Virus record (IMG/VR): IMGVR_UViG_3300022218_000004
Location: 1-42,129 of that record
DNA length: 42,129 nucleotides
Reading direction: 5' to 3' (one strand)
From: a virus
Lineage: Duplodnaviria > Caudoviricetes
Shown here: in pieces, positions 1,556 through 34,566 of the stretch
Position numbering within the stretch: the first letter of the stretch is position 1
Layout of the letters: every line of letters begins with the position of its first letter
Position numbers and translations under genes: made by a program
The notes under the pieces: model-generated
Database searches by the model: none
The model's input: only the letters and a program-made list of their open reading frames with translations
Told to the model about the DNA's origin: nothing

Positions 1556-2206
1556 ATGAAAGGAACCCAAGCGGAAGTTATCAAAGCCCTGAAAAAAGAT
1601 CACGGCATAACCTGCAGCCGAACCATTATTTCAAGGCTTTCAGGTGAAGATGATGAGCGAATTATCAAATTCAAAAACGGTAAGATCAGGGTAAAAGAAA
1701 CAGTCGCCGCCCTGGTTGAGTCTGGTTTCGGTAGAAAGGCGGGGATTCCGATCACAAGGCCAGATGGAACAAAGGGCGAAACGACTGAAGAGCCGGCCAG
1801 GAACGGGCAAAAACTCAGCAATGAAGATCTTGAAAAGATAATTCAAGAGCATATCGACGGTAAACCTATTACCCTGCAGACGCCTCGGGTGGTCGTAGAA
1901 AAATACAAGGCCATTCAATCCGCTGATAAAGACCGTATCGCTAACGAGATCAAGCTCGGGCTTTATCATCCAAAGGATGAAATAGAGGAGAAATCTTTTG
2001 AGCTTTTCCGCACCATCAGAGACAAGTCAAAGACAGGATTTGAAAAGGCAGCTTTAAAAATGCGCTCGGCTAAATCAACCCACGAAGCCCGCCAAATAGC
2101 AGAGACAGAACACCACAAAATCTTTTCTTCTGTCATTGCCGAATACGATCAGTCAGACGAAACGGTTAAAAAAAAACTTTTACAACTTTTGACAGGGTCA
2201 ACTTAA
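1556..2206 (+). CDS. terS: Terminase small subunit (Nu1-like)
   Basis: N-terminal wHTH-like TQAEVIKALKKDHGITCSRTIISRL; C-terminal helical RIANEIKLGLYHPKDEIEEKSFELFRTIRD; lies directly before TerL. Confidence 0.8.
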   Translation: MKGTQAEVIKALKKDHGITCSRTIISRLSGEDDERIIKFKNGKIRVKETVAALVESGFGRKAGIPITRPDGTKGETTEEPARNGQKLSNEDLEKIIQEHIDGKPITLQTPRVVVEKYKAIQSADKDRIANEIKLGLYHPKDEIEEKSFELFRTIRDKSKTGFEKAALKMRSAKSTHEARQIAETEHHKIFSSVIAEYDQSDETVKKKLLQLLTGST

Positions 2207-4158
2207 GCGCACTCGAACCGGATCCCAATGAACCTGTCGACGTATGGGCGGAAAAGCGCTTTCACCTTCCCGCAAGCTCAGAGATTCAAGGGCTGATTGA
2301 TCTATCCTACAGCCCACATATCATCCAGCCACTTAGGGACCTATCCCCACAAAGCCCGGTCAGGGTTGTTTATTTGGTATGCGGGACTCAAGTGGCCAAG
2401 TCAACTATGAATTTAGTGTTGATTGCCTACCGTATTGACTGCAAAATCAGGGGGCCTGTGCTGGCCATGCACGCCGTGAAAGGTATGGCCACAGATTGGG
2501 CAAAGGATGAGCTTGCCGGAACCATTGCAGCGAACAAATATATTTCGGACGTTCTTCATAGAGCCAAGAAAGGGGATGACAATCACCTCTTTAAAAAGTG
2601 GCCATGGGGCTCATTGATTGTCAGGGGCGGAGATAGCGGAACTTCTTACGCAAAAATATCAGCATCCCTTCTATTGATCGATGATATTGACAGATTTAAA
2701 ATGAATATCGGCGGAACCACTTCCGGAAAACACAAAGACAGGAAAATCGGTGAGGGCTCGCCTTTGGAGTTGCTATTTGATAGGGTTTCAGGTAGATTTG
2801 GAAACTATAAAATATTTGTGAACTCTTCGCCAAGGGCGGAGGGTGAAAGTATTATTTGGCCGGCTTATGAATCAGCGGATCAAAATCATTTTTATGTGAA
2901 GTGCCCACGGTGCGGCCATTATCAAACATGGGAATTTGAAAACCTAAAATTCAAGCACAAAGACTTCACTCTCACAGAAGAGCCCTACATTCTTTGTCAG
3001 AATACCGACTGTCAGAAAGTTGCAACCGGCCCAGGATTCAAGGCAAAAGAAAAACCCCGGGTTTACGAAGATGACAAATACAGGGTTATGCAGAACTGGG
3101 AGTATAGGCCTCATTCAGAAAGTATTGACCCACTATCAAAAAGCTACCGTGTTTCAAGTCTTTACTCCATGCTCGGTTATCCATTCTCACAGTACGCAAC
3201 CGACTGGTTGTCAGCGGACAAGGCATTTAAAGAGCTCGGCGACGAGGCCAAAAAGATCAGGCACCGAAACACTAAACAAGCAATGCCATGGAAACGCAAA
3301 GCAGGAAAAAAAATCCAACACTCAGCCCTTTTTAAAACTATGGAAAATTTGGATCCACTACCAGAAGACTGCGTCATTTTGAGTTGCGGTTTTGATGTTC
3401 AGGAAAACCCCGGAAGGATCGAGGGGCAGGTCAACGGATACGGGCCAAACAATGACAGGTTTTTGATTGATCACAGGATTTTCGGCGGGGATCCCAAAAT
3501 TAAACCAGGTCTTGAGGGAAGCCCCTGGAATGATGTTGCCGACTTTCTCCTGACAAAGCGTTACCGCAATTCATGGGGGCAGGATCAGCCGATTTATTGC
3601 GCTGCAATTGACATAGGGTGGGGAAAAGAAGAGGCATGGATTAAGTATTTTATTCAGAACTTTGAGCCTTTGAACCTGGGAAACATGTATCAGCCTATTT
3701 TTGGAGTGTTTGGAAAGGAAATCACCAAAGGATCAATTAATTTCATGAGCCGAACAGCAACCCAGGACGTTGACGGATTCGAAACATGGGGGATGTATTC
3801 GAATATCAAAAGGGTAGCAATTCGGAACCTTTTGGAAAAACATATTGAGAATAAACAGGCCGGCAATGAAAGCAACTTACATATCGGAAACAAGCCATGT
3901 TTCACAGAGGATTTTTTCAGACAATTGACGATCAGGCAGCCAGATGAAAAGGGGATCATGGTCAAGCCATACGACCACGCCAGAGACGAGCCGGAAAGCT
4001 GCATGTTTATCGCTGACGCCGCCTTTATTCTTTCATTCAAAGACTATGAATTTGGTATTGATTGGGATGATTTTAAAAAATGGAATAGCGAAGGAATCAA
4101 CGACGGAACCAGCGGAAAAAAGGCAAAACGTGTGATTAGTAGGGGTATACAAGTTTAG
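2170..4158 (+). CDS. terL: Terminase large subunit (lambda GpA family); frame open from 2170, no canonical start before the conserved N-terminus
   Basis: LEPDPNEPVDVWAEKRFHL..G..YSPHI N-terminal motif; Walker A-like TQVAKST; Walker B-like LLLIDDID; CPRCGHYQ; nuclease motif GFDVQ. Confidence 0.92.
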   Translation, partial: KKTFTTFDRVNLSALEPDPNEPVDVWAEKRFHLPASSEIQGLIDLSYSPHIIQPLRDLSPQSPVRVVYLVCGTQVAKSTMNLVLIAYRIDCKIRGPVLAMHAVKGMATDWAKDELAGTIAANKYISDVLHRAKKGDDNHLFKKWPWGSLIVRGGDSGTSYAKISASLLLIDDIDRFKMNIGGTTSGKHKDRKIGEGSPLELLFDRVSGRFGNYKIFVNSSPRAEGESIIWPAYESADQNHFYVKCPRCGHYQTWEFENLKFKHKDFTLTEEPYILCQNTDCQKVATGPGFKAKEKPRVYEDDKYRVMQNWEYRPHSESIDPLSKSYRVSSLYSMLGYPFSQYATDWLSADKAFKELGDEAKKIRHRNTKQAMPWKRKAGKKIQHSALFKTMENLDPLPEDCVILSCGFDVQENPGRIEGQVNGYGPNNDRFLIDHRIFGGDPKIKPGLEGSPWNDVADFLLTKRYRNSWGQDQPIYCAAIDIGWGKEEAWIKYFIQNFEPLNLGNMYQPIFGVFGKEITKGSINFMSRTATQDVDGFETWGMYSNIKRVAIRNLLEKHIENKQAGNESNLHIGNKPCFTEDFFRQLTIRQPDEKGIMVKPYDHARDEPESCMFIADAAFILSFKDYEFGIDWDDFKKWNSEGINDGTSGKKAKRVISRGIQV

Positions 4159-4296: not shown

Positions 4297-4746
4297 ATGC
4301 CTGATGTATTCACAAATAACGGAAATGCAGCTTTAGACAATATTGCATTGTTCCGAAAAATCGCACACCTTGATTTAAAAATCAGCTTCAAAAATGATCA
4401 AGGCAAGCTGAAATCACGAACCGCTTTAAAATCTATTCTCTTTGTCCTGGCTACGTTCAGGAATAACACAACTTCACAGTGCAACCCTGATACTAGAACC
4501 ATTGCGGATCTTGCTGGTTGCTCAAGGGATACCGTTAACCGATCTCTGAACACTTTGATTGAACACGGTATTTTGATAAAAATATCATCCCCGGTCGGTA
4601 GCAATGTTAAAAATAAGTATTATTTCTGTTTAGATATGCCAGACTTGATTGGAATATTTGAAGATGACGAACACGAAATACATAATACTCCCGAGGGTGA
4701 AAGTGTTGAGGAGGCAATTGAAATTTATAGATCCCATGTCTTATAG
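4297..4746 (+). CDS. Winged-helix (HTH_36-like) DNA-binding protein, replication-initiator-like N-terminal domain
   Basis: KSILFVLATFRN...CNPDTRTIADLAGCSRDTVNRSLNTLIEHGIL...N.Y. Confidence 0.8.
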   Translation: MPDVFTNNGNAALDNIALFRKIAHLDLKISFKNDQGKLKSRTALKSILFVLATFRNNTTSQCNPDTRTIADLAGCSRDTVNRSLNTLIEHGILIKISSPVGSNVKNKYYFCLDMPDLIGIFEDDEHEIHNTPEGESVEEAIEIYRSHVL

Positions 4747-4860
4747 TAAGACACCGGTGTCTTATGGTGCGTCCCTTCATGTCTTATAGTAAGACATGCT
4801 CGTGTCTTATGGTAAGACACTAACAAGTAATAAACAAATAAAAGAACAAATAAATTGAAT
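4737..4860. repeat. Palindromic iteron-like array followed by an A-rich tract
   Basis: TGTCTTAT(A/G)GTAAGACA at 4737, 4780 and 4803, half site at 4758; then AACAAGTAATAAACAAATAAAAGAACAAATAAA. Confidence 0.85.
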
Positions 4861-4913
4861 AACCCTGTTTTTTTCAAAACAGGACATAAATTTCTTTTTA
4901 AAAAGGGGATTCA

Positions 4914-5528
4914 ATGGAAGATAAAATAATACAAAAGGATTTTAAGAAAGATCGTCAGAGAAAAAGCAAAGGGCGTTTTGTTGGGCATTCAACGCCAAAA
5001 ATTGAAAACAGCTTGCCAGCTTCAGACCTTTTAGAAATGGCAGAACACCAAATGGTTAGAGTTTTTGAATTGATGTCAGAATTTGAATATGAATCCCTAC
5101 CTATTTTGGAGAGTTTAAAAGAAGAGTTTGAAATAGAATATGATCGGGGCATCACCACAGACGCGCTTTATTTTCAAAATTTATTTAAAAGAGTTTTTGA
5201 TTCGTACCGGTCAAAAGTAGGCGAATTGTCATTTTTACAAGAATTAAAGGATTCAGGTTATCCAGATTACCCATACAAGACGCTTGAGGATTCTGGATAT
5301 GTAATGATTTATACACATGATTTAAAGTATTCTAAGGCTGAACACCGGTATATCTATGAAAAATACAGCGGCGAAACACTTAACAAATACACTGTTGTTC
5401 ATCATATCAACAGAAACCGTTCTGATAATCGCTTCGAAAATTTACAAGCCATGACCAGAAGCCAGCACTCAAAACTTCACGGTAAAAAAGAGAACAGAAC
5501 AAAGAAGGAATTGAGGCTCGAAATCTAG
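4914..5528 (+). CDS. HNH endonuclease (HNH_3-like C-terminus)
   Basis: EHRYIYE...VVHHINRNRSDNRFENLQAMTRSQHSKLH. Confidence 0.85.
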   Translation: MEDKIIQKDFKKDRQRKSKGRFVGHSTPKIENSLPASDLLEMAEHQMVRVFELMSEFEYESLPILESLKEEFEIEYDRGITTDALYFQNLFKRVFDSYRSKVGELSFLQELKDSGYPDYPYKTLEDSGYVMIYTHDLKYSKAEHRYIYEKYSGETLNKYTVVHHINRNRSDNRFENLQAMTRSQHSKLHGKKENRTKKELRLEI

Positions 5529-5564
5529 TAAATAACATAGTCGGGCAAAAACCCGACTGTAAAA

Positions 5565-6107
5565 ATGGGGTTTGAAAAGATGAAAAAATCAGGAATGGGA
5601 TCCCATCATAGTGCAAACATGGGAAAAGATGAGTGGCTAACTCCTCCGGCAATTATACGATCGTTTGGAGAATTCGACCTTGATCCGTGTTCACCGATCG
5701 TCAGGCCATGGGATACAGCAAAAGAACACTATACAATAAAAATCGACGGGTTATCAATGCCTTGGTTTGGTCGTGTCTGGATGAATCCCCCTTACGGAAA
5801 ACATACCGGGGCATGGTTAAAAAAACTCTCTGAACATGGCAACGGAATTGCGCTTATATTTGCCAGGACAGAAACAAAAATGTTTTTTGATTGGGTTTGG
5901 AGCAGGGCGAACGCGGTATTTTTTTTAAAAGGCAGACTTTCATTTTTTCACGTTGACGGAAGGCAAGCCAAAGACGACGCCGGGGCCCCGTCTTGTTTGA
6001 TTGCTTATGGTGAAAACAATATTAAGGCGATCGCTAATTCAGGCATTATAGGAAAATTAATAATCTTGGATCCGGAAAAGAACTTTGATGAGCAATATAA
6101 TTTCTAA
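5565..6107 (+). CDS. Phage DNA N6-adenine methyltransferase
   Basis: DEWLTP, FDLDPCS, W.GRVWMNPPYG, ARTET..F, GRLSF motifs. Confidence 0.92.
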   Translation: MGFEKMKKSGMGSHHSANMGKDEWLTPPAIIRSFGEFDLDPCSPIVRPWDTAKEHYTIKIDGLSMPWFGRVWMNPPYGKHTGAWLKKLSEHGNGIALIFARTETKMFFDWVWSRANAVFFLKGRLSFFHVDGRQAKDDAGAPSCLIAYGENNIKAIANSGIIGKLIILDPEKNFDEQYNF

Positions 6108-6316: not shown

Positions 6317-6547
6317 ATGGCCGGTTGGGATCTGGAAAACTTAACAGAAGAGTTTAACACATGGAAGGCAGCCAGCACAGCCATTGCAACCGGGCAGGAA
6401 TACGAAATTGCAGGACGGCGGCTTGAAAGAGCAAATCTTGAAGAGGTCCGCGAGTATTTGGATTATTTAGACGGAAAAATCAAAGCACTTGAAGAAAATT
6501 CAGCGGGCGGACTGATTACGAGTCAAATTTCATTAACTGACAGATAA
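6317..6547 (+). CDS. Head-tail joining protein, gpW-like (DUF6148-like)
   Basis: AIATGQEYEIAGRRLERANLEEV motif; lies just before the portal. Confidence 0.85.
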   Translation: MAGWDLENLTEEFNTWKAASTAIATGQEYEIAGRRLERANLEEVREYLDYLDGKIKALEENSAGGLITSQISLTDR

Positions 6548-8134
6548 ATGCCACTCCAAAAAATTGAATTACCACAATCAGCCTTAAGGCCGAACGTAAT
6601 CGACAAGGTTGCGCAGTATTTTCCAGGATGGGCGAAGTCGAGGCATGAAAGCCGGATGAAACTTGCGGCCACCGCTGGCGGTTACGAGGCGGCGGCTAAA
6701 TCAAGCGCGGTTTTCGACGGTTACACGACGGCCTTGACTGATGCTGATAGCTCGGTTGATTTCGGGGAAAGGCTGACGATAGTCGAAAGAGACAGGCAGC
6801 TTGTCAGGGATGTTCCGGTTGCTCGGGGTCTGATAAATCGTGTTTGTGACCATGCAATCGGGGCCCGGGGCTTAACCCTTCATCCACAAATTGATGCCCG
6901 TTTGCTCGGATGGGATCAGGAAAGGGCGACGGCTTGGCAAGATGAAGCCGAAAGTTTGTGGCGGATATGGTCAGAATCACAAGAAAGCGACCTGGCAAGA
7001 ATTCAGAACTTTCAAGAAAAGACATATTTAACACTGGAATCGATGCTTGAGGGCGGCGACTGCTTTACGCTTTTCACGAATAAAAAACGGGCCGGCTCTG
7101 ATTTCAAGCTGAAACTTCAAACAATCGAAAGTGAGAGAGTTAGCAATAAAGACTATGAGCAAGACACCGCGGAAAAAGTCGAGGGAGTAATAAAAGGCGA
7201 ATACGGCGAGCCAATACAATATCAAATATCAAATGCTATCGCTGGCGATTACTCCAAAAATATTGAAATCAAGTGGGAAACAAGAAACATTTTCGACAGC
7301 AGGACCGGACGCCGAAACATTCTGCAGCATTATAACCAGATCAGACCGGGGCAAACGCGGGGAATCCCGATCCTGGGAACCGTAACAGATAAATTGGTTC
7401 AGCTCGGCAGATTATCAAACGCTGAATTATTAGCGGCCGTTATCAACAGCTATTACACTTTGGTAATTACCGGCGAGCCAGGCGACACAAAGCAGACGAA
7501 ACAGTCCCCTTCTCAATCCGGGACACAATCGTTAAATGATAAGCTGACGCTTGGATCCGGATCAATTGTGAGGGCTGACGCTGGAACAGGATTTCAATCG
7601 TTCGAAACAAAAAGACCGTACTCAGGATTTGAGCCTTATTTTAATGCAATGGTTGCCGAAATTGGCGCGGCGGTTGGAGTTCCGAGAAGTTTGATTATGA
7701 TGACTTTTGATAAGTCATATTCTGCCAGCCGGGGTGAGGTTCTTTTAGCCTGGGTTTATTTTTTGGCAAAGCGGACCGACATGGCCGTTGGATTATGTCA
7801 GCCAACTTACGAGGCTTTTTTAGATGAGGTTGTTTCAGAGGGGATACTTGACGCGCCTGGATATTTTTCAAATCACAGAATTAAAAAGGCTTTTCAAGGG
7901 TCAGCTTACAACCAATGGACGGGACCGACAAGGCCTGCAATTGACGAGCTAAAAGAATCAAGAGCGAATGCCCTTTATCATAAAATGGGTGTCAAAAGTT
8001 TGACGGGAATCACAACAGAAACAACCGGTAAGGATTGGGTTAAAGTCACCGAACAGCTAAAGCGAGAAAATGAACTGAGAACAAAAGCAGGACTCGAAGA
8101 GCTTGCCGACGTTCCAGGATTGGGGGAAGCATGA
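6548..8134 (+). CDS. Portal protein, lambda family
   Basis: LKLQTIESER, RPGQTRGIP, SYSASR, IDELKE motifs; 528 aa. Confidence 0.95.
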   Translation: MPLQKIELPQSALRPNVIDKVAQYFPGWAKSRHESRMKLAATAGGYEAAAKSSAVFDGYTTALTDADSSVDFGERLTIVERDRQLVRDVPVARGLINRVCDHAIGARGLTLHPQIDARLLGWDQERATAWQDEAESLWRIWSESQESDLARIQNFQEKTYLTLESMLEGGDCFTLFTNKKRAGSDFKLKLQTIESERVSNKDYEQDTAEKVEGVIKGEYGEPIQYQISNAIAGDYSKNIEIKWETRNIFDSRTGRRNILQHYNQIRPGQTRGIPILGTVTDKLVQLGRLSNAELLAAVINSYYTLVITGEPGDTKQTKQSPSQSGTQSLNDKLTLGSGSIVRADAGTGFQSFETKRPYSGFEPYFNAMVAEIGAAVGVPRSLIMMTFDKSYSASRGEVLLAWVYFLAKRTDMAVGLCQPTYEAFLDEVVSEGILDAPGYFSNHRIKKAFQGSAYNQWTGPTRPAIDELKESRANALYHKMGVKSLTGITTETTGKDWVKVTEQLKRENELRTKAGLEELADVPGLGEA

Positions 8135-9450
8135 AAATTTTAGGGCTTTTAAACGCGCCATGGATGATAGACCAGGGCTCTTTGACAGAGATAACGCAGG
8201 AATATATCAACCACATGCAGGGCGAAAAGCTTGATTTTAAAGCTTTGCTGACTGACCAACAGAGAGGGCGGCCGGCTTTCGAGGTTCAGGGCTCTACCGC
8301 AATCATCCCCTTAAAAGGCGTAATGTCTCCGGGAATGTCGTTTTTTACATTCTTTTTTGATGGAACCTCAACCAAAAACGTTCAAAAGAATATCCAGGCC
8401 GCAATTGACAGCGCAGAAATTGACAAAATTATCATTGATGTAAATTCAGGCGGCGGAGCTGTAGAGGGCGCGTTCGAACTTGCTGATTTTATCGCAGAGG
8501 CTGCGACAATAAAAGAGGTGATAGCCTTTTCAGATGGAACAATCGCCAGCGCTGCATATTTGGCTGTCTCGGGCGCGTCTAAAATCTATATCACAGGAAA
8601 ATCAAATCAAGTTGGATCAATCGGAGTTATAGCAAGGCGGCTTGATGTTTCAAAAATGAATGAAATGGAAGGGCTTGCCGTCAATGAGTTCGTGACGGGT
8701 GTTTACAAGAATAGCCTTTCGAGAGATAAGCCGCTGTCAGAAACGGACGCGGCCGAAATACAGTTAATGGTTGATAAGAATTTCGAGCCTATGGTCGCAG
8801 ATATTGCAGCGCGGCGCGGCATGGATCCACAACAAATCATTGACATGCAAGGCCGCATTTTTATCGGTGCGGAATCAATTGAAGTTGGACTTGTGGACGG
8901 TGTTGCCACATTGAATGAATTAATCAATAACGAGGCCGGTGCGCCAATTTTAAACCAAAATCAAAGGGCAAATATGACAAAGGATGAACTCAAGGCTAAT
9001 CATCCGGAGCTATTCGCAGAACTTGAAGCCGAAGCGGAAGCCAAGACTTTGAACGCGGATTTGTCAGCACAAGCAAAAGTTGAAGAAAGGGAAAGAATTC
9101 AAGGCATCAACGCCGCCTGTTTTCCCGGTCAAGAGGCGCTTGCGGCTGAAATGATAGCAGACGGAAAGACAAGCCCAGGGGAAGCCGCGATTCGATTTAA
9201 CGCGGTTGAGAAACAAACCAGGATTGACGCAGGGGCGAAAATTGCAGCCGGAATGCCGGAGCCAGTCGCACAACCCGAGCCGGTTGTCACGGATCCGAAA
9301 CCAGCAGAGCCGGAAGCAAAAACGCCGGAACAGGAATTCGAAGGTTCAAAAGAGCTGCAAGCAGAATTCCAGGATTTTGAAACTTACAAGGCATATCTGG
9401 ACGCAACACAAGCCGGGCATGTTCGTGTATTTCAGGGGAGGGATGAATAA
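8131..9450 (+). CDS. S49 (gpC-like) prohead protease with C-terminal scaffold
   Basis: IDVNSGGG, ASAAY, VGSIGV motifs; MTKDELKANHPEL...ERERIQGI scaffold segment with a possible internal start. Confidence 0.92.
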   Translation: MKILGLLNAPWMIDQGSLTEITQEYINHMQGEKLDFKALLTDQQRGRPAFEVQGSTAIIPLKGVMSPGMSFFTFFFDGTSTKNVQKNIQAAIDSAEIDKIIIDVNSGGGAVEGAFELADFIAEAATIKEVIAFSDGTIASAAYLAVSGASKIYITGKSNQVGSIGVIARRLDVSKMNEMEGLAVNEFVTGVYKNSLSRDKPLSETDAAEIQLMVDKNFEPMVADIAARRGMDPQQIIDMQGRIFIGAESIEVGLVDGVATLNELINNEAGAPILNQNQRANMTKDELKANHPELFAELEAEAEAKTLNADLSAQAKVEERERIQGINAACFPGQEALAAEMIADGKTSPGEAAIRFNAVEKQTRIDAGAKIAAGMPEPVAQPEPVVTDPKPAEPEAKTPEQEFEGSKELQAEFQDFETYKAYLDATQAGHVRVFQGRDE

Positions 9451-10373
9451 TGACAACTTTAGCCAAAGATACACCGAGAAACTACGGCCAGGGTGACATG
9501 AATGACCTTCCCGTTATTGCTTCAGATATCATTTACGAAGGCGCTTTTGTCGGTGAAAATGCGAGCGGATATTCACGGCCCTTGGTGGCTGGCGATCCGT
9601 TTCAGGGTGTTTGTATGCGTCAAGCCGATAATTCAAGCGGAGCCGCCGGTGATATTAACGTAAGGGTTCGCTCAAATGGAATTCTGTCAAATATCGCTGT
9701 AGCTGGCGCAACTGCCATTACTGCAAATGACTTTCCGCCTGTTTACGCTTCAGACGATAATACTTTGACGCTGACAGCCGGAACAAATACCAAAATCGGA
9801 AACGTTTTGCGGTGGATTTCATCTGGTATTTGCGACGTAACGTTTGACACGCCTCGCCCGCCCTCAACAGTTGGAACGGCTGACATTGAAGACGAAGCCG
9901 TGACAGTTGGTAAAATGGCCGATCTTGCACAGGGTTCTATTTATTCAGGACAGGCAAGCAACCGACCGGCGGCGCTGGCAGCGGAGACAGATGCGCAAAT
10001 CCTTATAGGCGACGGCACCGACATTAATAGTGTTGCTGTTTCTGGCGATGTTACAATTGACAACGCCGGAGCCGTTACAATCGGAGCGGCTAAGATTTTG
10101 CTCGCAATGTTGGCGACTGGAATCGCCCCAAGTCACGTTATTAAGTTTGCCGGTGAGGTTACTTGGACCGGCGGCGGCGCAACGTTGGCGCATACCGTAA
10201 CGGGGGCTCTTGCAACTGACATTGTTACCGCAACCTTTCACACACTCGGAAGCGAGGGAACCATTATTCAAGGCGCGGTTGCTTCAGCCGATACTGTGAC
10301 GTTCACTTTGGACGCTGCGAACACTTCAAACGACGCTGTTATTTCCTATGTAGTCTATAGGGCCGCAGCTTAA
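9450..10373 (+). CDS. Capsid decoration/cement protein (DUF2190-like) with a fibre-like C-terminal extension
   Basis: IYEGAFVG...VYASDDNTLTLT..IG N-terminus; IEDEAVTVGKMA and GDVTIDNAGAVTIG repeats; between protease and capsid. Confidence 0.7.
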   Translation: MTTLAKDTPRNYGQGDMNDLPVIASDIIYEGAFVGENASGYSRPLVAGDPFQGVCMRQADNSSGAAGDINVRVRSNGILSNIAVAGATAITANDFPPVYASDDNTLTLTAGTNTKIGNVLRWISSGICDVTFDTPRPPSTVGTADIEDEAVTVGKMADLAQGSIYSGQASNRPAALAAETDAQILIGDGTDINSVAVSGDVTIDNAGAVTIGAAKILLAMLATGIAPSHVIKFAGEVTWTGGGATLAHTVTGALATDIVTATFHTLGSEGTIIQGAVASADTVTFTLDAANTSNDAVISYVVYRAAA

Positions 10374-10379
10374 CAAACA

Positions 10380-10400
10380 GCGGGCGATTTTGCCCGCTTT
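10380..10400 (+). terminator. Stem-loop between decoration and capsid genes
   Basis: AGCGGGCG-ATTT-TGCCCGCT followed by TT; weak terminator or mRNA stabiliser. Confidence 0.45.
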
Positions 10401-10456
10401 AACTATCTTTCGCTTTCCCGGTGTTGGAAATCGAAAACCATAATCGGGAGATAAAA

Positions 10457-11422
10457 ATGGGTGTGAATGCATTAGGATCAAGCCGGGGCTTGATCGGGAC
10501 TTTTTACAAAACTTTGCAACAAGATACGGGTGTAAGCTGGATAAATTCAGTTTCAAAGCTTTTCACCTCGAATCAGTTGACAGAGATTTATCGTTGGCTC
10601 GGAATGGTCCCGCAAATGCGTGAATGGATCGGGGCGAGACAGGCAAAAGGCTTTTACGACAATGAGTATTCAATCACGAACAAGCGGTTTGAAGCTACTC
10701 TGGAAGTTTTGAGGGCTGACGCGCAACGTGACGACACCGGCCAAACCCGCATGAGAATCATGGACCTGGCGCGGCGTACCAATTCGCATTGGGCCAAGCT
10801 TCTTACCGATCTGATTATCGCAGGGGAATCAACGACTTGTTACGATGGTCAATATTTTTTCGACACTGACCACGTCGAAGGCAACAACACAACCAGCCAA
10901 AGCAACGATTTATCAATTGATATTTCAGCTTTGCCGACCCAGGTTCATGGATCAACCACGAATCCAAGTTCTGAGGAAATGTCTCAAGTTATTTTGCAAA
11001 CTGTTGAGGCAATCATAGGGTTCAAAGACAATGAAAACGAGCCGATGGGAGAAGAGGCGAACGAATTTCTCGTTATGTGCCCGATTCCGTTGATGTCTTC
11101 CGTCTCTGCAGCGCTTACAAGCCCGACTTTCGGTGGTGGAGCCACTAACCAGCTTTACGGGTTCAAAGAAGATCAGGACTTTTCAATCTCCTTTGCTCCA
11201 AATGCGCGCTTGACCTGGACAGAGCAGATTGCAACTTTCAGGACTGATTCAGGCGGCGGAAAAGCTTTGATTCGCCAGCAAGAAAAAGAGGTTGAGCTGA
11301 AAACAAAGGCCGAGGGATCAGAATTTGAATTTGACAACGACGCTTGGCAATTTGGTGTTGATGCTCGCAGAAATGTCGGATATGGTTTCTGGCAAGACGT
11401 CTGCATGGCTACCATGACATAA
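10457..11422 (+). CDS. Major capsid protein, Mu gpT-like
   Basis: YRWLGMVPQMREWIGAR, NKRFEAT, CYDGQYFFDTDH, FGVDARRNVGYGFWQ; GGGAG RBS before ATG 10457. Confidence 0.93.
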   Translation: MGVNALGSSRGLIGTFYKTLQQDTGVSWINSVSKLFTSNQLTEIYRWLGMVPQMREWIGARQAKGFYDNEYSITNKRFEATLEVLRADAQRDDTGQTRMRIMDLARRTNSHWAKLLTDLIIAGESTTCYDGQYFFDTDHVEGNNTTSQSNDLSIDISALPTQVHGSTTNPSSEEMSQVILQTVEAIIGFKDNENEPMGEEANEFLVMCPIPLMSSVSAALTSPTFGGGATNQLYGFKEDQDFSISFAPNARLTWTEQIATFRTDSGGGKALIRQQEKEVELKTKAEGSEFEFDNDAWQFGVDARRNVGYGFWQDVCMATMT

Positions 11423-13561: not shown

Positions 13562-13909
13562 ATGACTCTAAAAAGCCAAATAATTAGCGATATCTCTGCA
13601 GCCTTTATAAATACAGATGAATTTGGATATTCAGCCGTTTGGACTCCGCAAGACGGCATTGCGCAACCGGCTTTCAATGTGATTTATGATGATATAATTT
13701 TACACGGCGACCCTGAACAAGAAAACCCAGTAATACAGCCAGAAACGACAGTCATGGCAGCCACAACAGACGTCGAGAACGTAAAAGAGTACGACACGAT
13801 ACAAATAAATGGAATCATTTTTGAAGCGATCGGCGCTTCATATGTTGACCCGCATAATAGCGGAATGTCACTTATTGATCTCAGAATGCAGACAGAGACA
13901 AGGATATGA
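13562..13909 (+). CDS. Head closure protein (gpFII-like)
   Basis: MTLKSQIISDISAAFINTDEFG N-terminus; size and position. Confidence 0.7.
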   Translation: MTLKSQIISDISAAFINTDEFGYSAVWTPQDGIAQPAFNVIYDDIILHGDPEQENPVIQPETTVMAATTDVENVKEYDTIQINGIIFEAIGASYVDPHNSGMSLIDLRMQTETRI

Positions 13910-14283
13910 TTAAAACACTAAATCGTTATTCCGGTTTGATTAGCGTTGTTGTTCTGATAGTTGGATTCGCTCTAACTATCCAAACATTTGCTTTTGATAT
14001 TGAAAAAAAAATCGATCTTATCACAACCGATTATTCAAAATATAAAGAGACTTCGCTGGCAAATCATAAGGCGTCGGACGCGGTGTTATTGGGCATTAAA
14101 TCAGAGATTGAGAAAGAAAGGATTCATCAAGAATACATGGTGAAGTTGATAGAAAACTCAACACAAGCAACGCGGGACCTGTCGAGAACAGTGAACAGGC
14201 TCAACATTTTACTTGAAAAGATAGCCGCTACAAATGGGGTGTCTAAATTAAACAGGGGGAATCATGTCGAAGAAAACGGGTAA
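13906..14283 (+). CDS. Membrane-anchored coiled-coil protein
   Basis: One N-terminal TM segment (LISVVVLIVGFALTI) followed by a coiled coil. Confidence 0.6.
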   Translation: MIKTLNRYSGLISVVVLIVGFALTIQTFAFDIEKKIDLITTDYSKYKETSLANHKASDAVLLGIKSEIEKERIHQEYMVKLIENSTQATRDLSRTVNRLNILLEKIAATNGVSKLNRGNHVEENG

Positions 14284-14455: not shown

Positions 14456-15373
14456 ATGGGCACAACACCAACAAATTTTCCAGCGGTAGGGCGTCAATTA
14501 TTCGGCGTGCATTCAGTTTGTTCAATTGACAGAACCACAAGGCTTCCAACTGGGATAGCTCGGATTCTCGGAGACATAAGCCTTGCATTTGAGGCTTCCA
14601 GTGTTGACAACCGGGGCGGGTCTTCTTTCTACCCATGGGCAACTGAGATCACGGAAGTTGACTCAAACATTAATTTTCAGATCAAGGAATATCCAGACTG
14701 GGTAATGCAAAATTATGCAGCGGCAAAAATAACGACTACCGCTGCTAGCGCCACAGACGGAACAGTTTCCGCGCTGGTGAATAAAGAGGGAACGAGCGTT
14801 TTTGACGCTACAACCGGGATTGCAACGGCCACATTGAAATCAGGTGAAGCCGCCAACATGAAAACCGGCGCATTCAGGGTTGTGGCTGCATCAGCTACGA
14901 CCGTCGATGTTTATGCTGTTTCGAATTTTCAATTTACGCGAGGGACAACTCTTTACGCCGACGACAACACAATGAAGATCACGACAAGCCCGCTGACAAT
15001 TGTGGACGCCGGGGCCTCTCCGGCCGAAGTTCCTGGAACCGGGATTGAATTAACAGGCGGGTCTGGCACGGTTGCCATGACTATCGGTGATGTGGCAGAA
15101 TATCACGTCACACCACCTCACAGTGGGATGTCAAAAGTTGAAATTGGCGTTGAAGGATACATTTTCCCGGAGCATGAACTTTATATTTTTGGAAAGCAAC
15201 GAGCAGATGGGAGATCAATGTACGTGCATTGCCCGAAAGCTGTTTGCACGTCCGGGATGACCTGGAACTTTTCACAAGGGGATTTTTCAACAACGGACAT
15301 TTCCGCCAAATTGCTGAATGATTCAGTGCTCGGAAATGTAGCGACTCTGTATTTTTCAGACAACATTCTATAA
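14456..15373 (+). CDS. Major tail (tube) protein
   Basis: 305 aa, Thr/Ala/Gly-rich; strong RBS; precedes the chaperone and tape measure genes. Confidence 0.7.
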   Translation: MGTTPTNFPAVGRQLFGVHSVCSIDRTTRLPTGIARILGDISLAFEASSVDNRGGSSFYPWATEITEVDSNINFQIKEYPDWVMQNYAAAKITTTAASATDGTVSALVNKEGTSVFDATTGIATATLKSGEAANMKTGAFRVVAASATTVDVYAVSNFQFTRGTTLYADDNTMKITTSPLTIVDAGASPAEVPGTGIELTGGSGTVAMTIGDVAEYHVTPPHSGMSKVEIGVEGYIFPEHELYIFGKQRADGRSMYVHCPKAVCTSGMTWNFSQGDFSTTDISAKLLNDSVLGNVATLYFSDNIL

Positions 15374-16221
15374 TGGGACTGTCTGACTTTTGCCCGTATC
15401 CATTGTCTATAGAATGGAACGGGCTTGATATAACATTGAAACCGTTCGACCTTCGGGCTATGTCCTGGTCTGAGCGGTTTTTTAGTTTGGACGGTCAGTG
15501 TGGATTCGAGCGCATGGGCCAGACATTAAAAAACGAACATGGTGACATTGCGCGAGAAAACGCAATCGTTGAAATTGTTTTTCACTTGGCTGGCGATCAG
15601 TTTAAAAAAATCAAAATCTATAAGGATGGATTCAAGGAAACAACGGTCAAAAGAGATTGGAAAGAGCGCCTTTTTTCAAGACCATGGAAGCCACTTGTTA
15701 AAGAAAAGCCAGGCGAGCCAGAACCATGCATGATTGAAAGCGGCTTTATATCAACACCTGAAATACTCAAAGAAGAGATCAGGAATCACAAAAACAAAGT
15801 CGAGATTTTTAACGGGTTTGTGGACAAGATTAACAAAATTATTAACAGCTCATTCACACCACAAGAGGAAGAGGAAGAGCCGAAGGGCGGCTCAATATTC
15901 AATGCATTAAGGGCGCAGTCCAAAGGCGCAAGGAAACAGGATCAAGTAATAGATTGGAGCCCTATCTATGTTGAGCTTTATTCAGCCGGGGGAATGAGCA
16001 TTGAGCAGTTTTTAAGCCTTACACCGAAACAAGTTGATTTATTGCGGCAAGACATACATTGCAAGAGATTTGATGATAACGAATTTAACGCAAAAATACA
16101 CGGTATGAAAATGAAAGGGGCTCCTGTAAGAAGGGGGCAGCAAATGAAATTCTCGAAAGAAGACATTGCAGAGTTTGAGGAAATACACAGCAGGCTAACT
16201 GAAGAGCGAAGGATCAACTAA
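15373..16221 (+). CDS. Tail assembly chaperone (G- and T-like parts in one frame)
   Basis: Position; C-terminal GMSIEQFLSLTPKQVDLL motif. Confidence 0.6.
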   Translation: MGLSDFCPYPLSIEWNGLDITLKPFDLRAMSWSERFFSLDGQCGFERMGQTLKNEHGDIARENAIVEIVFHLAGDQFKKIKIYKDGFKETTVKRDWKERLFSRPWKPLVKEKPGEPEPCMIESGFISTPEILKEEIRNHKNKVEIFNGFVDKINKIINSSFTPQEEEEEPKGGSIFNALRAQSKGARKQDQVIDWSPIYVELYSAGGMSIEQFLSLTPKQVDLLRQDIHCKRFDDNEFNAKIHGMKMKGAPVRRGQQMKFSKEDIAEFEEIHSRLTEERRIN

Positions 16222-32160: not shown

Positions 32161-32864
32161 CAGAAAAAATTCCAGGCGGTTATTATCTGAAAGCCAGGAT
32201 TATCACAAAAAAGCCGATATCTAAAGCGCCTCCGCATATTAGGGAAATATGGGATTATTGCTTAAGAGAGGCAAACCATAAGGATCAAACTTACGGCCAA
32301 TATACAGTTAAAAGGGGTCAATTGTTTCGGACTTACAAAGATATTTTGGATGGTTTAAGCTGGTTTGTTGGGTGGCGAAAAATGACATACAACGAAAACC
32401 ACATGAAGACCGCAATGGTGTATCTAAGGAAACATCTAATGATCACTACAAAGAAACAACTTGGCGGCGTACTGATAACTGTAATAAATTACGATACTTA
32501 CCAGACTGCAAAAAACTACGAAGCAACTAGCGAAACAACTACGAAAGAACCAACGAAACCACCAAAGAATCAACCATCCCCTCCCGACAATAACAAGAAT
32601 GATAAGAAGAAAGAAAAGAATAATACTATAACAAAACCCGAATCCGTAACCGATCAAACCTGGAGTGATTTTTTAAAACACCGTAAAGACAAAAAAGCGC
32701 CTATCACCAAAACAGTGATTAACACATTTTTAAAAGAGTCCAAAAAGGCTGGAATGTCACTTGAAGATGCTTTAATTGAATCTATATCCAGGGGATGGAG
32801 AGGATTTAAGGCGGAATGGGTTAATAAAAATCAATCAGGTAGTGGAAATTATGACTACCTATAA
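32157..32864 (+). CDS. Replication initiator (lambda O-like architecture)
   Basis: GGYYLKAR..., VKRGQLF, ITVINYDTYQ; low-complexity linker; C-terminal W.DF..HRK.KKAP.T...SISRGWRGFKAEW. Confidence 0.85.
   Translation: MTEKIPGGYYLKARIITKKPISKAPPHIREIWDYCLREANHKDQTYGQYTVKRGQLFRTYKDILDGLSWFVGWRKMTYNENHMKTAMVYLRKHLMITTKKQLGGVLITVINYDTYQTAKNYEATSETTTKEPTKPPKNQPSPPDNNKNDKKKEKNNTITKPESVTDQTWSDFLKHRKDKKAPITKTVINTFLKESKKAGMSLEDALIESISRGWRGFKAEWVNKNQSGSGNYDYL
32514..32630. repeat. Putative origin inside the initiator gene (degenerate iterons plus A-rich tract)
   Basis: AACTACGAA (32514, 32537), AACTAGCGAA (32525) and AACCAACGAA (32548) at ~11-12 bp spacing, then an A-rich strand-asymmetric tract. Confidence 0.6.
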
Positions 32865-34566
32865 ATTTTCTGATTACGGGATCATAGTCGACAATGGAAG
32901 AGATCAGCAAAGAGTTAGTTGTCCTGAGTGTACACCATACAGGCAGAAAAAAAACATTAAAGATTTAGCTGTAAATATCAAAGAGGGGATTTGGCTTTGT
33001 CACCATTGCGGCTGGAAAGGATCTTTAAAACTTAATCGGATTGAACAGGAAATGAAACCACAAAAAAAAGTCTACAAAAAACCTGCAAAGATTCTTTCTT
33101 ATGATCTGCCTGAAAATGTGCTTAAATATTGGGGTACCAGAGGCATTTCCTACAACACGCTTAAAAAGTGCGGGGTAACGTTTGAGCGGTCCTGGATGCC
33201 ACAAACCGAAAAGGAAGAGAATTGCACCGTTTTTAATTACTGGCTAAACGGCGAATTAATCAATAAAAAATACCGCACAGGGAAGAAACACCATAAACTT
33301 GCAAAGGACGCGAAACTTGTTTTTTATGCACCAATGGCAAAACAAAAACATTCGTACTCAGGCGATCTTTATATCACAGAGGGAGAGCCCGACTGTTTAT
33401 CAATGATTGAATTAGGATTTGATAACACAATATCCCCACCGAATGGAGCCCCGCCGGAAAACGTCGACATTAAATCACAAGATTTTTCTTACATGGATTC
33501 ATTAATTGAAATCATGCCGAAATACGACCGGGTTTTTCTTGTAATGGATACCGACGGAGTCGGGGCAAGGTTCAGGGACGAGATAGCCAGGAGAATCGGG
33601 TTAGAGCGTTGTTTTCGTGCTGAATATCCAGAAGGGTGTAAGGATATTAACGACGTTTTGGTTAAGTTTGGAAGCATAAAAGCAACTGAGATTATAAGAA
33701 ATTGCAAGCCGTACCCAATAGAGGGGAAGTTTGATGTTTCAGACTTCATGGATGATATTGGGAACCTGTACGAAAATGGATTCGAAAAAGGTAGTTCAAT
33801 CGGTTGGGATTCAATTGATAAATTATATACGGTAAGGCCGAAAGAATTCACGATTATCACCGGGATCCCTTCACATGGAAAAAGCTCTTTCCTTGATCAC
33901 ACATTGGTTAATTTGGCAAAAAATAAGGGGTGGAAATTTGGGATTTTTAGTCCTGAAAACTTCCCGTTTGCTCGCCACGTTGCAAAACTATCTGAAATCT
34001 ATATCGGCAAGCCATTCGATAAGCACTACTCCGGGTATATGTCAAAAGAGGAGCTAACAAGAGCCGTCGGTTTCTGTAATGATCATTTCCATTTTATCAT
34101 GCCGAATGAAGATGATAACCAAACACTGGATAAAATTCTCGATCTTGCGAAGGCTTCAATATTTAAGGATGGAATTAACGGCCTAATAATAGACCCATGG
34201 AACGAGATCGAGCACAAAATGGGAAAGGGTGAAATGGAAACGAATTATATTTCGAAATCACTTTCGAAGATCAGAAGGTTTTGCCGTGTAAACAATATTC
34301 ATGTCTGGATCGTGGCACACCCTACAAAACTAGTTAAAATCCAAGCAGGGGACAAAAAAGGACAATACCCCGTCCCGACTCCTTATGATATATCAGGCGG
34401 GGCGCACTGGCGGAATAAAGCTGATAATTGCGTCTGCATACATTTGGATTTCGAGACAAAAATAACAACTTTCTTTTCTCAAAAAGTAAGATTCAAAGAG
34501 GTCGGGAAAGTTGGAAACACTGACCTAAAATTCAATATTGCAAACGGTAGATATGCGGAAGTATAA
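32851..34566 (+). CDS. Bifunctional primase-helicase (T7 gp4/Twinkle-like)
   Basis: Zn finger CPEC...CHHCGWKG; TOPRIM ITEGEPD, MDTDGVG, KDIND; helicase TGIPSHGKS, IIDPWN, VAHP, ISGGAHW. Confidence 0.95.
   Translation: MTTYKFSDYGIIVDNGRDQQRVSCPECTPYRQKKNIKDLAVNIKEGIWLCHHCGWKGSLKLNRIEQEMKPQKKVYKKPAKILSYDLPENVLKYWGTRGISYNTLKKCGVTFERSWMPQTEKEENCTVFNYWLNGELINKKYRTGKKHHKLAKDAKLVFYAPMAKQKHSYSGDLYITEGEPDCLSMIELGFDNTISPPNGAPPENVDIKSQDFSYMDSLIEIMPKYDRVFLVMDTDGVGARFRDEIARRIGLERCFRAEYPEGCKDINDVLVKFGSIKATEIIRNCKPYPIEGKFDVSDFMDDIGNLYENGFEKGSSIGWDSIDKLYTVRPKEFTIITGIPSHGKSSFLDHTLVNLAKNKGWKFGIFSPENFPFARHVAKLSEIYIGKPFDKHYSGYMSKEELTRAVGFCNDHFHFIMPNEDDNQTLDKILDLAKASIFKDGINGLIIDPWNEIEHKMGKGEMETNYISKSLSKIRRFCRVNNIHVWIVAHPTKLVKIQAGDKKGQYPVPTPYDISGGAHWRNKADNCVCIHLDFETKITTFFSQKVRFKEVGKVGNTDLKFNIANGRYAEV

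Follow-up and report, generated by a model that had tools for sequence, protein, structure and literature searches.

How does a phage produce the large subunit of its terminase when the gene for that subunit has no start codon of its own? Terminase is generally taken to be an enzyme of two subunits that are made separately, and in lambda, where the protomer is TerS2:TerL1, the genes for the small (TerS) and large (TerL) subunits are each independently started. By contrast, in the window analysed here, which is the whole stretch of a 42,129-base phage record, the terL frame behind terS is closed by a stop codon and then open for 662 codons, within which the TTG of codon 69 is the earliest ATG, GTG or TTG (Table 1). 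At a run of nine adenines (A9), read by terS as GTT AAA AAA AAA CTT and followed by eight further sense codons and a TAA at 2204-2206, terL sits in the -1 frame relative to terS, such that the predicted products are a free TerS and, through a -1 shift, a fusion of 207 + 660 = 867 codons.

An initial annotation of this sequence had proposed that TerL is produced solely in a form fused to TerS, by way of a ribosomal or transcriptional -1 shift at the A9. The anatomy that it described, an A9 within terS and a terL frame without a start, is reproduced from the sequence and its open reading frames. A second A9, at 14003-14011, lies in frame within another gene, giving two + strand A9 runs in 42 kb. 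A promoter scan of positions 900-2500 returned four weak sites, with 1.9 expected, and no exact terminal repeat of at least 16 nt was found in the window.

Table 1. Features of the terS-terL junction, with positions in the window
Feature	Positions	Strand	Basis
terS, small terminase subunit, 216 aa	1556..2206	+	phrog_57 match; ATG at 1556 agrees with the N-termini of relatives
TAA closing the terL frame upstream	2167..2169	+	Stop-to-stop open reading frames; terL-frame stop at or before the run in 10/10 members
Nine As that terS reads as three AAA (Lys) codons; candidate shift site, on which RNA polymerase likely slips	2168..2176	+	A9 in 10/10 members
terL reading frame, lambda GpA type, start-less until codon 69	2170..4158	+	PF05876, PF20454, phrog_15
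Predicted N-terminal helix of the terL frame (residues 2-14), with codons that overlap the 3' end of terS; would be the linker in the fusion	2173..2211	+	AlphaFold model, alignment
Candidate stem of the initial annotation, which the present data do not support as part of the signal	2189..2240	+	Folding, shuffles, conservation
Landmark codon for Trp26, in the N-terminal motif of GpA proteins	2245..2247	+	W26 at least 90% conserved in the TerL alignment
First TTG (codon 69) and the stretch G72-T79, which we take to be Walker A-like	2374..2406	+	Start scan; Q74 invariant

Proteins encoded at the junction

The product of the terL frame matches two Pfam families above their cut-offs, PF05876 across residues 38-284 (E = 2e-39; 136 bits, cut-off 25.6) and PF20454 across residues 324-590 (E = 5e-22; 79 bits, cut-off 22.5), as well as phrog_15 from residue 7 (E = 8e-92). 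By these profiles it is a large terminase of the lambda GpA type, with predicted ATPase and nuclease domains; the missing start argues against an ordinary two-gene terminase and leaves the family assignment intact. An AlphaFold model of residues 1-310, based on a 52-row alignment, has a mean pLDDT of 87 and a pTM of 0.85, and places a helix at residues 2-14, with pLDDT of 65 for residues 1-10 and 81 for residues 11-20. In the alignment rows examined, residues 2-14 of the terL frame pair gaplessly with the N-terminal segments of GpA proteins of the ordinary kind. Because residues 21-70 are modelled confidently (pLDDT 86-97 per block), initiation at the TTG of codon 69, with the loss of 68 residues, would remove part of the ATPase fold.

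The phrog_57 profile (terminase small subunit) matches TerS in all ten aligned members of the clade described below, with a best E value of 1.4e-17 and one of 7.8e-4 for the window, and the HTH_17 profile matches three of the ten. The position of the gene directly upstream of terL and the helical N-terminal domain of its AlphaFold model (mean pLDDT 74, pTM 0.35) are likewise those of a small terminase. The model suggests an N-terminal helix-turn-helix-like domain, a disordered linker and long helices, with a C-terminal helix carrying Lys205-207. When this model was compared with the PDB using Foldseek, no match at E <= 0.001 was found; searches with TerS gave no match among annotated phages, and a word search with the single sequence returned only TerS itself.

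Predictions of a complex between two copies of TerS(87-216) and TerL(1-310) reached a score of 0.53, against 0.02 for the best control, with at least 65% of contacts in agreement between runs and a partner pLDDT of at least 61. Of 157 solved complexes, 116 attain the mark applied to such scores, as do two of 215 mismatches, and since 18 of the solved complexes and both mismatches lie at the mark but no higher than 0.60, the prediction is a weak indication of binding, which may be driven by likeness to lambda terminase.

Conservation of the A9 run and the start-less frame

Three collection scans with the TerL alignment returned 19 loci; setting aside the window's own record, four repeats, two loci without the junction and three distant GpA loci left nine distinct relatives, with TerL 50-72% and TerS 19-37% identical. 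TerS could not be used to seed a locus scan, its alignment being too divergent. A viral scan with the single TerL protein gave seven pattern matches, none of which was confirmed, and a terL N-terminal DNA pattern that omitted the A run found nothing beyond four viral contigs already identified. In a FastTree phylogeny, the 57 rows belonging to the clade are separated from all others by a long branch, the support of which is 100.

Exactly nine As are found at the same place of terS in the window and all nine relatives, and in each of the ten the -1 frame that follows the run is the open terL frame. The distance from the first A of the run to the conserved Trp codon is 77-78 nt (26 codons). The stop of the terL frame overlaps the start of the run in two members, its end lying 3-21 nt upstream of the run in the other eight, and terS stops 18-37 nt past the run. 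As the run is kept in 10/10 members although the pairwise identity of the junction DNA is just 48-68%, its conservation exceeds that expected by chance. The junction A9 is the sole + strand A9 in each of the nine related loci, one of which (L013) also has one T9. At the level of sequence, a start-less terL behind an A9 is thus a real feature of the whole clade.

Database proteins lead to a similar picture. Among 48 TerL matches, one was the window's own and one was distant; none of the 46 homologues counted, which are 423-655 aa long, begins before query residue 15, with starts instead lying at residues 15, 23, 39, 51, 55, 80, 93 and 97-106 (Met15 in eight and Met23 in 13). No fused TerS-TerL homologue was present among the 46, though lengths of 364-1159 aa were searched. 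Likewise, 33 TerS proteins were gathered, eight being those of the window or of the loci themselves, and in 23 of the 25 further homologues the C-terminus consists of a KKK followed by 6-12 residues.

These comparisons bear on whether the sequence itself might mislead. Homopolymers are error-prone in sequence data, and the initial annotation had raised the alternative that an A is missing from the assembly; a true A10 would make a single fused gene, and a true A8 would allow terL to be read from a TTG at 2136-2138 in the third frame, which in the window alone is open through the run. With the same run length in 10/10 assemblies from different records, and because no homologue begins before residue 15 and none is fused, an assembly error of either kind is rejected as scarcely credible. 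The start at TTG 2136 is separately ruled out by a third-frame stop just before the run in eight of the ten members.

A very improbable alternative is that the run varies at the level of DNA, through replication slippage or phase variation, with a minority of A10 genomes encoding a constitutive single-chain terminase. Replication readily introduces indels into poly-A tracts (PMC3711429; PMC1088944), yet the ten assemblies uniformly carry A9 and no homologue is of fusion length over the range searched. The terL frame is intact downstream of the run, at 628-662 codons, in the nine members with a full-length frame, and terL is a gene essential for packaging.

Comparison with other GpA loci

Other GpA loci were drawn from two phylum samples, each comprising 401 genomes, and from the best 80 of 596 viral matches, bringing the total to 164 loci; removal of 13 duplicates or junction-less fragments and of 17 that could not be aligned to the Trp landmark left the ten clade loci and 124 others. 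An ATG, GTG or TTG is found 10-60 codons before the conserved Trp in 124/124 of these others and in 0/10 of the clade, by a criterion that is lax. In some ordinary GpA genes, the distance from the start to the Trp is just 15-22 codons. A start codon at exactly 26 codons is present in 25 of the 124 controls, the commonest position besides an internal one at 11, and as this is where the A9 lies in the clade, the shift is likely to have taken over the role of an ancestral terL start codon.

Runs of at least eight As or Ts in the 150 nt before the Trp occur in one of the 124 controls, a weak comparison given that the controls are mostly GC-rich (median GC 0.62, with 10/124 below 0.48). The single exception is the distant locus L006, for which one close relative, lacking the junction, and two distant relatives with ordinary starts were found; it may represent a second, independent origin.

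The proposal that a -1 shift supplies TerL solely in fusion with TerS is therefore strengthened both by the nine of nine readable relatives, which share the slippery A9 and the missing terL start that the initial annotation suggested looking for in homologous phages, and by the 124-locus control. From sequence comparison, TerL is very probably made as such a fusion, alongside free TerS, by a programmed shift at the A9, whichever the route.

Selection on the run and the reading frames

Given the TerS residues and the codon usage of each locus, the chance of at least nine As in all ten members is 4.9e-6, and that of exactly nine is 4.5e-10; both values treat the members as independent and, as these are related, overstate the case. 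The run is placed in two codon registers, NNA-AAA-AAA-AA(G/C) in eight members and NTT-AAA-AAA-AAA in two, the window and L019, which fall on separate branches of the tree such that two changes are forced. Mixed forms, which would yield an A8 or A10 in the same frame with little or no change to the protein, were absent from all ten members (Fisher p 0.022). The length of the run therefore appears to have been kept across the two registers by compensating changes, a pattern that, while depending on two members, favours slippage by RNA polymerase over ribosomal -1 shifting. Slippage has been described as efficient at nine As or Ts (PMC5009743), and a run of 9A or 9T that is length-conserved in homologues has been considered very likely to signify purposeful slippage (PMC1088944); a length-conserved run of this kind lies at the frame transition in 10/10 members, in both registers.

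Downstream of the run, the fifth terS codon begins with T in nine of the ten members, with all eight of the Leu codons at this position being TTR (the TTR share of Leu codons being 0.27-0.88), and the TerL residue at the same place is hydrophobic or aromatic in 10/10. This codon pattern indicates that the -1 frame is constrained five codons past the run. The third frame is shut within six codons in all ten members.

That constraint is relevant to the suggestion that TerL initiates independently, whether through ribosomes that reinitiate on an ATA overlapping the terS stop or from an internal Met around residue 15-23, with the Lys run being kept for reasons of protein function. An ATA overlaps the terS stop or the codon after it in 8/10 members, the Met15 and Met23 of the database homologues (the former known from protein alone) could mark genuine starts, and the ordinary GpA genes with starts 15-22 codons before the Trp show such a length to occur. 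However, an N-T-A codon arises automatically over a TAA or TAG stop in the -1 frame, and the terS stops of the window and L013 instead overlap a TTA; the sole near-cognate codon before the Trp in the window is one AGG without Shine-Dalgarno pairing. Reinitiation would also leave unexplained the exact A9, the constraint on the frame at codon five, which is upstream of the ATA, and the presence of an ATG there in 0/10 members, making independent initiation of TerL quite unlikely.

Stimulatory signals and the route of the shift

Programmed -1 ribosomal frameshifting would give the same fusion from an unaltered mRNA, and might act together with polymerase slippage. In the terS frame, the heptamer A_AAA_AAA is found in 10/10 members and A_AAA_AAG in 7/10, both conforming to the X_XXY_YYZ pattern; the latter is the site of Escherichia coli dnaX and the most shift-prone in that species (PMC5009743), and either route is used among orthologous dnaX genes (PMC3711429). 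Against a ribosomal route, a 7-nt site would be enough, yet nine As are preserved, and A_AAA_AAG is missing from three of the ten members, with the window and L019 lacking the AAG and L013 having AAC in its place.

Stimulators of -1 frameshifting, in the form of a 3' stem or an upstream Shine-Dalgarno sequence, are common, though not obligatory, and neither is conserved here. The initial annotation had put forward a stimulatory stem pairing 2189-2200 with 2229-2240; this does form in the minimum-energy fold of the window (-12.2 kcal/mol), but 147 of 200 shuffled sequences were as stable (z +0.68), and across the members it is paired in 49% of cells, a value equalled in 111 of 500 shuffles, such that the stem is neither significant nor conserved. 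No consensus structure was detected in the ten downstream regions (-0.43 kcal/mol), nor any conserved upstream or internal Shine-Dalgarno sequence among the ten members. Individual loci have stable folds that are not common to the other members: L004, in one of two downstream window sizes (z -2.4), and L019, upstream of the run (z -2.6).

Both of the routes named by the initial annotation hence fit the existence of a -1 shift, with transcriptional slippage favoured by the constant length of the run in both registers, the absence of a conserved stimulator and the lack of A_AAA_AAG in 3/10 members. Ribosomal frameshifting as the route is consequently regarded as possible but somewhat doubtful, and on balance it seems likely that RNA-polymerase slippage on the A9 yields TerL, exclusively as an 867-aa TerS-TerL fusion, with unslipped transcripts giving free TerS.

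A model for terminase production

From the anatomy of the junction and its conservation, we infer the shift, its transcriptional nature and the arrangement of the subunits as follows. RNA polymerase would slip on the A9 and add one A in part of the transcripts, from which the 867-aa TerS-TerL, as the only form of TerL, would be translated; the unslipped remainder would encode the 216-aa TerS. In the fusion, the N-terminal helix of TerL would stand in place of the final nine residues of TerS. By analogy with the lambda TerS2:TerL1 protomer, one free TerS may then pair with one fusion. In lambda terminase (gpNu1/gpA), the large subunit of which is of the same family as that of the window (PF05876, PF20454), the C-terminal helical bundle of TerS is modelled to bind the N-terminal helix of TerL (PMC10810279), and these are the ends that would be joined in the TerS-TerL fusion; free TerS and fusion could thus rebuild the protomer if around half of the products shift. 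It may tentatively be proposed that the clade possesses a recoded one-gene holoenzyme, in which slippage of the host RNA polymerase on a length-tuned A9 sets the TerS2:TerL1 ratio and keeps the DNA-recognition domains on the motor throughout packaging.

The closest parallels are found among IS elements. In the IS3, IS1 and IS630 families, a similar junction provides a DNA-binding protein alone (OrfA) and its -1 fusion to a catalytic ORF (OrfAB), with A9 runs and transcriptional slippage in some IS, such as the 9A slippage of elements in Deinococcus and Nostoc (PMC5009743; PMC1088944). Unlike these transposases, the enzyme here is an essential virion-packaging motor, the parts of which are separately started in 124/124 other GpA loci. 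The dnaX gene of Thermus thermophilus likewise has nine As and two products that enter one complex at about 1:1 (PMC5009743; PMC3711429), but its slippage truncates the long product, whereas slippage in the phage would be required for the long, catalytic one. Similarly, the lambda gpG and gpGT proteins are a phage morphogenesis pair of a short protein and its -1 fusion (PMC5009743); these are tail assembly chaperones rather than an enzyme, however, and the shift is ribosomal, at around 3.5% (cited in PMC9965538).

Recoding has also been proposed to be needed for terminase synthesis in the Streptomyces phage Hau3, although that case involves UUA-triggered bypass of short inserts within terL, in 3/100 genes, with neither a TerS fusion nor an A run (PMC10732093). 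This bypassing was the only terminase recoding found in the literature searched, which was largely the openly available part (including PMC8008677, PMC4066793 and PMC10299305), and no recoded terS-terL fusion was found there. A review of small terminases (PMC9611059) makes no mention of 'frameshift' or 'fused', with 'fusion' appearing only in the title of a reference, and terminase is absent from two of the three supplementary files of PMC3711429 and from the accessible supplement of PMC1088944. Relative to annotated phage records, the identity of the window's TerL is about 25% in the best 30 of 359 matches and under 60% in all. The recoding logic is therefore that of OrfA/OrfAB in IS elements and of G/GT in lambda, and apparently new for terminases.

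Holoenzymes outside lambda and P22 have been found hard to assemble for study (PMC10810279). If the model is correct, a fusion of TerS and TerL that is both natural and obligate would demonstrate that TerS is able to stay tethered to the motor, and would supply a ready construct both for holoenzyme structure and for testing whether TerS departs or rearranges between cutting and translocation. The few genes that rely on slippage would also be joined by an essential one from a phage. At the level of annotation, gene callers truncate TerL across the clade, all 46 of the database homologues starting at residue 15 or later, which matters in practice, TerL being a standard phage marker.

A further A9 run at the end of terS

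Among the 124 control loci (other GpA loci, all of which have an ATG, GTG or TTG 10-60 codons before the conserved Trp of the GpA N-terminal motif), only L006 has an A or T run of at least 8 in the 150 nt before the Trp codon. This locus, found twice as the same site (L006:2813-2824 and L084:1499-1510), belongs to a distant GpA phage (TerL identity 23%, GC 54%), in which the last three codons of terS are AAA, forming an A9 run followed immediately by the stop codon, with terL in the -1 frame. As an ATG is present 26 codons ahead of the Trp, this terL may start normally; an independent origin is possible. At another locus, L076 (G753), a GpA terL has its frame interrupted some five codons upstream of the profile match (position 16), representing either a broken gene or an assembly error.

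Gene content and possible hosts

Chaperones of the G/GT type are usually encoded between the tail tube and tape measure genes, where the window has one ORF, which may be a constitutive G-T fusion.

Features of the window
Position	Feature	Context
4297-6107	HTH replication-initiator-like gene, HNH endonuclease, Dam-type methyltransferase	Three genes between terL and head-tail adaptor plus portal
6317-11422	Lambda-type portal, S49 protease and Mu gpT-like major capsid protein (PF10124)	Portal and protease combined with a capsid protein of another (Mu gpT-like) type
13906-14283	125-aa ORF	
14003-14011	Second A9, in frame within the 125-aa ORF	Other two frames both close shortly downstream
15373-16221	282-aa ORF	Flanked by probable tail tube gene and tape measure gene
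32776-34566	Primase-helicase fusion (Toprim + DnaB-like)	
32947; 33062	A8 runs	Within the primase-helicase fusion

Among bacterial genome contigs the clade is matched only by L018 and L019, both on short contigs; the metagenome-assembled genomes concerned are one of Desulfobacteraceae and one of Victivallales, which hints weakly at the host.
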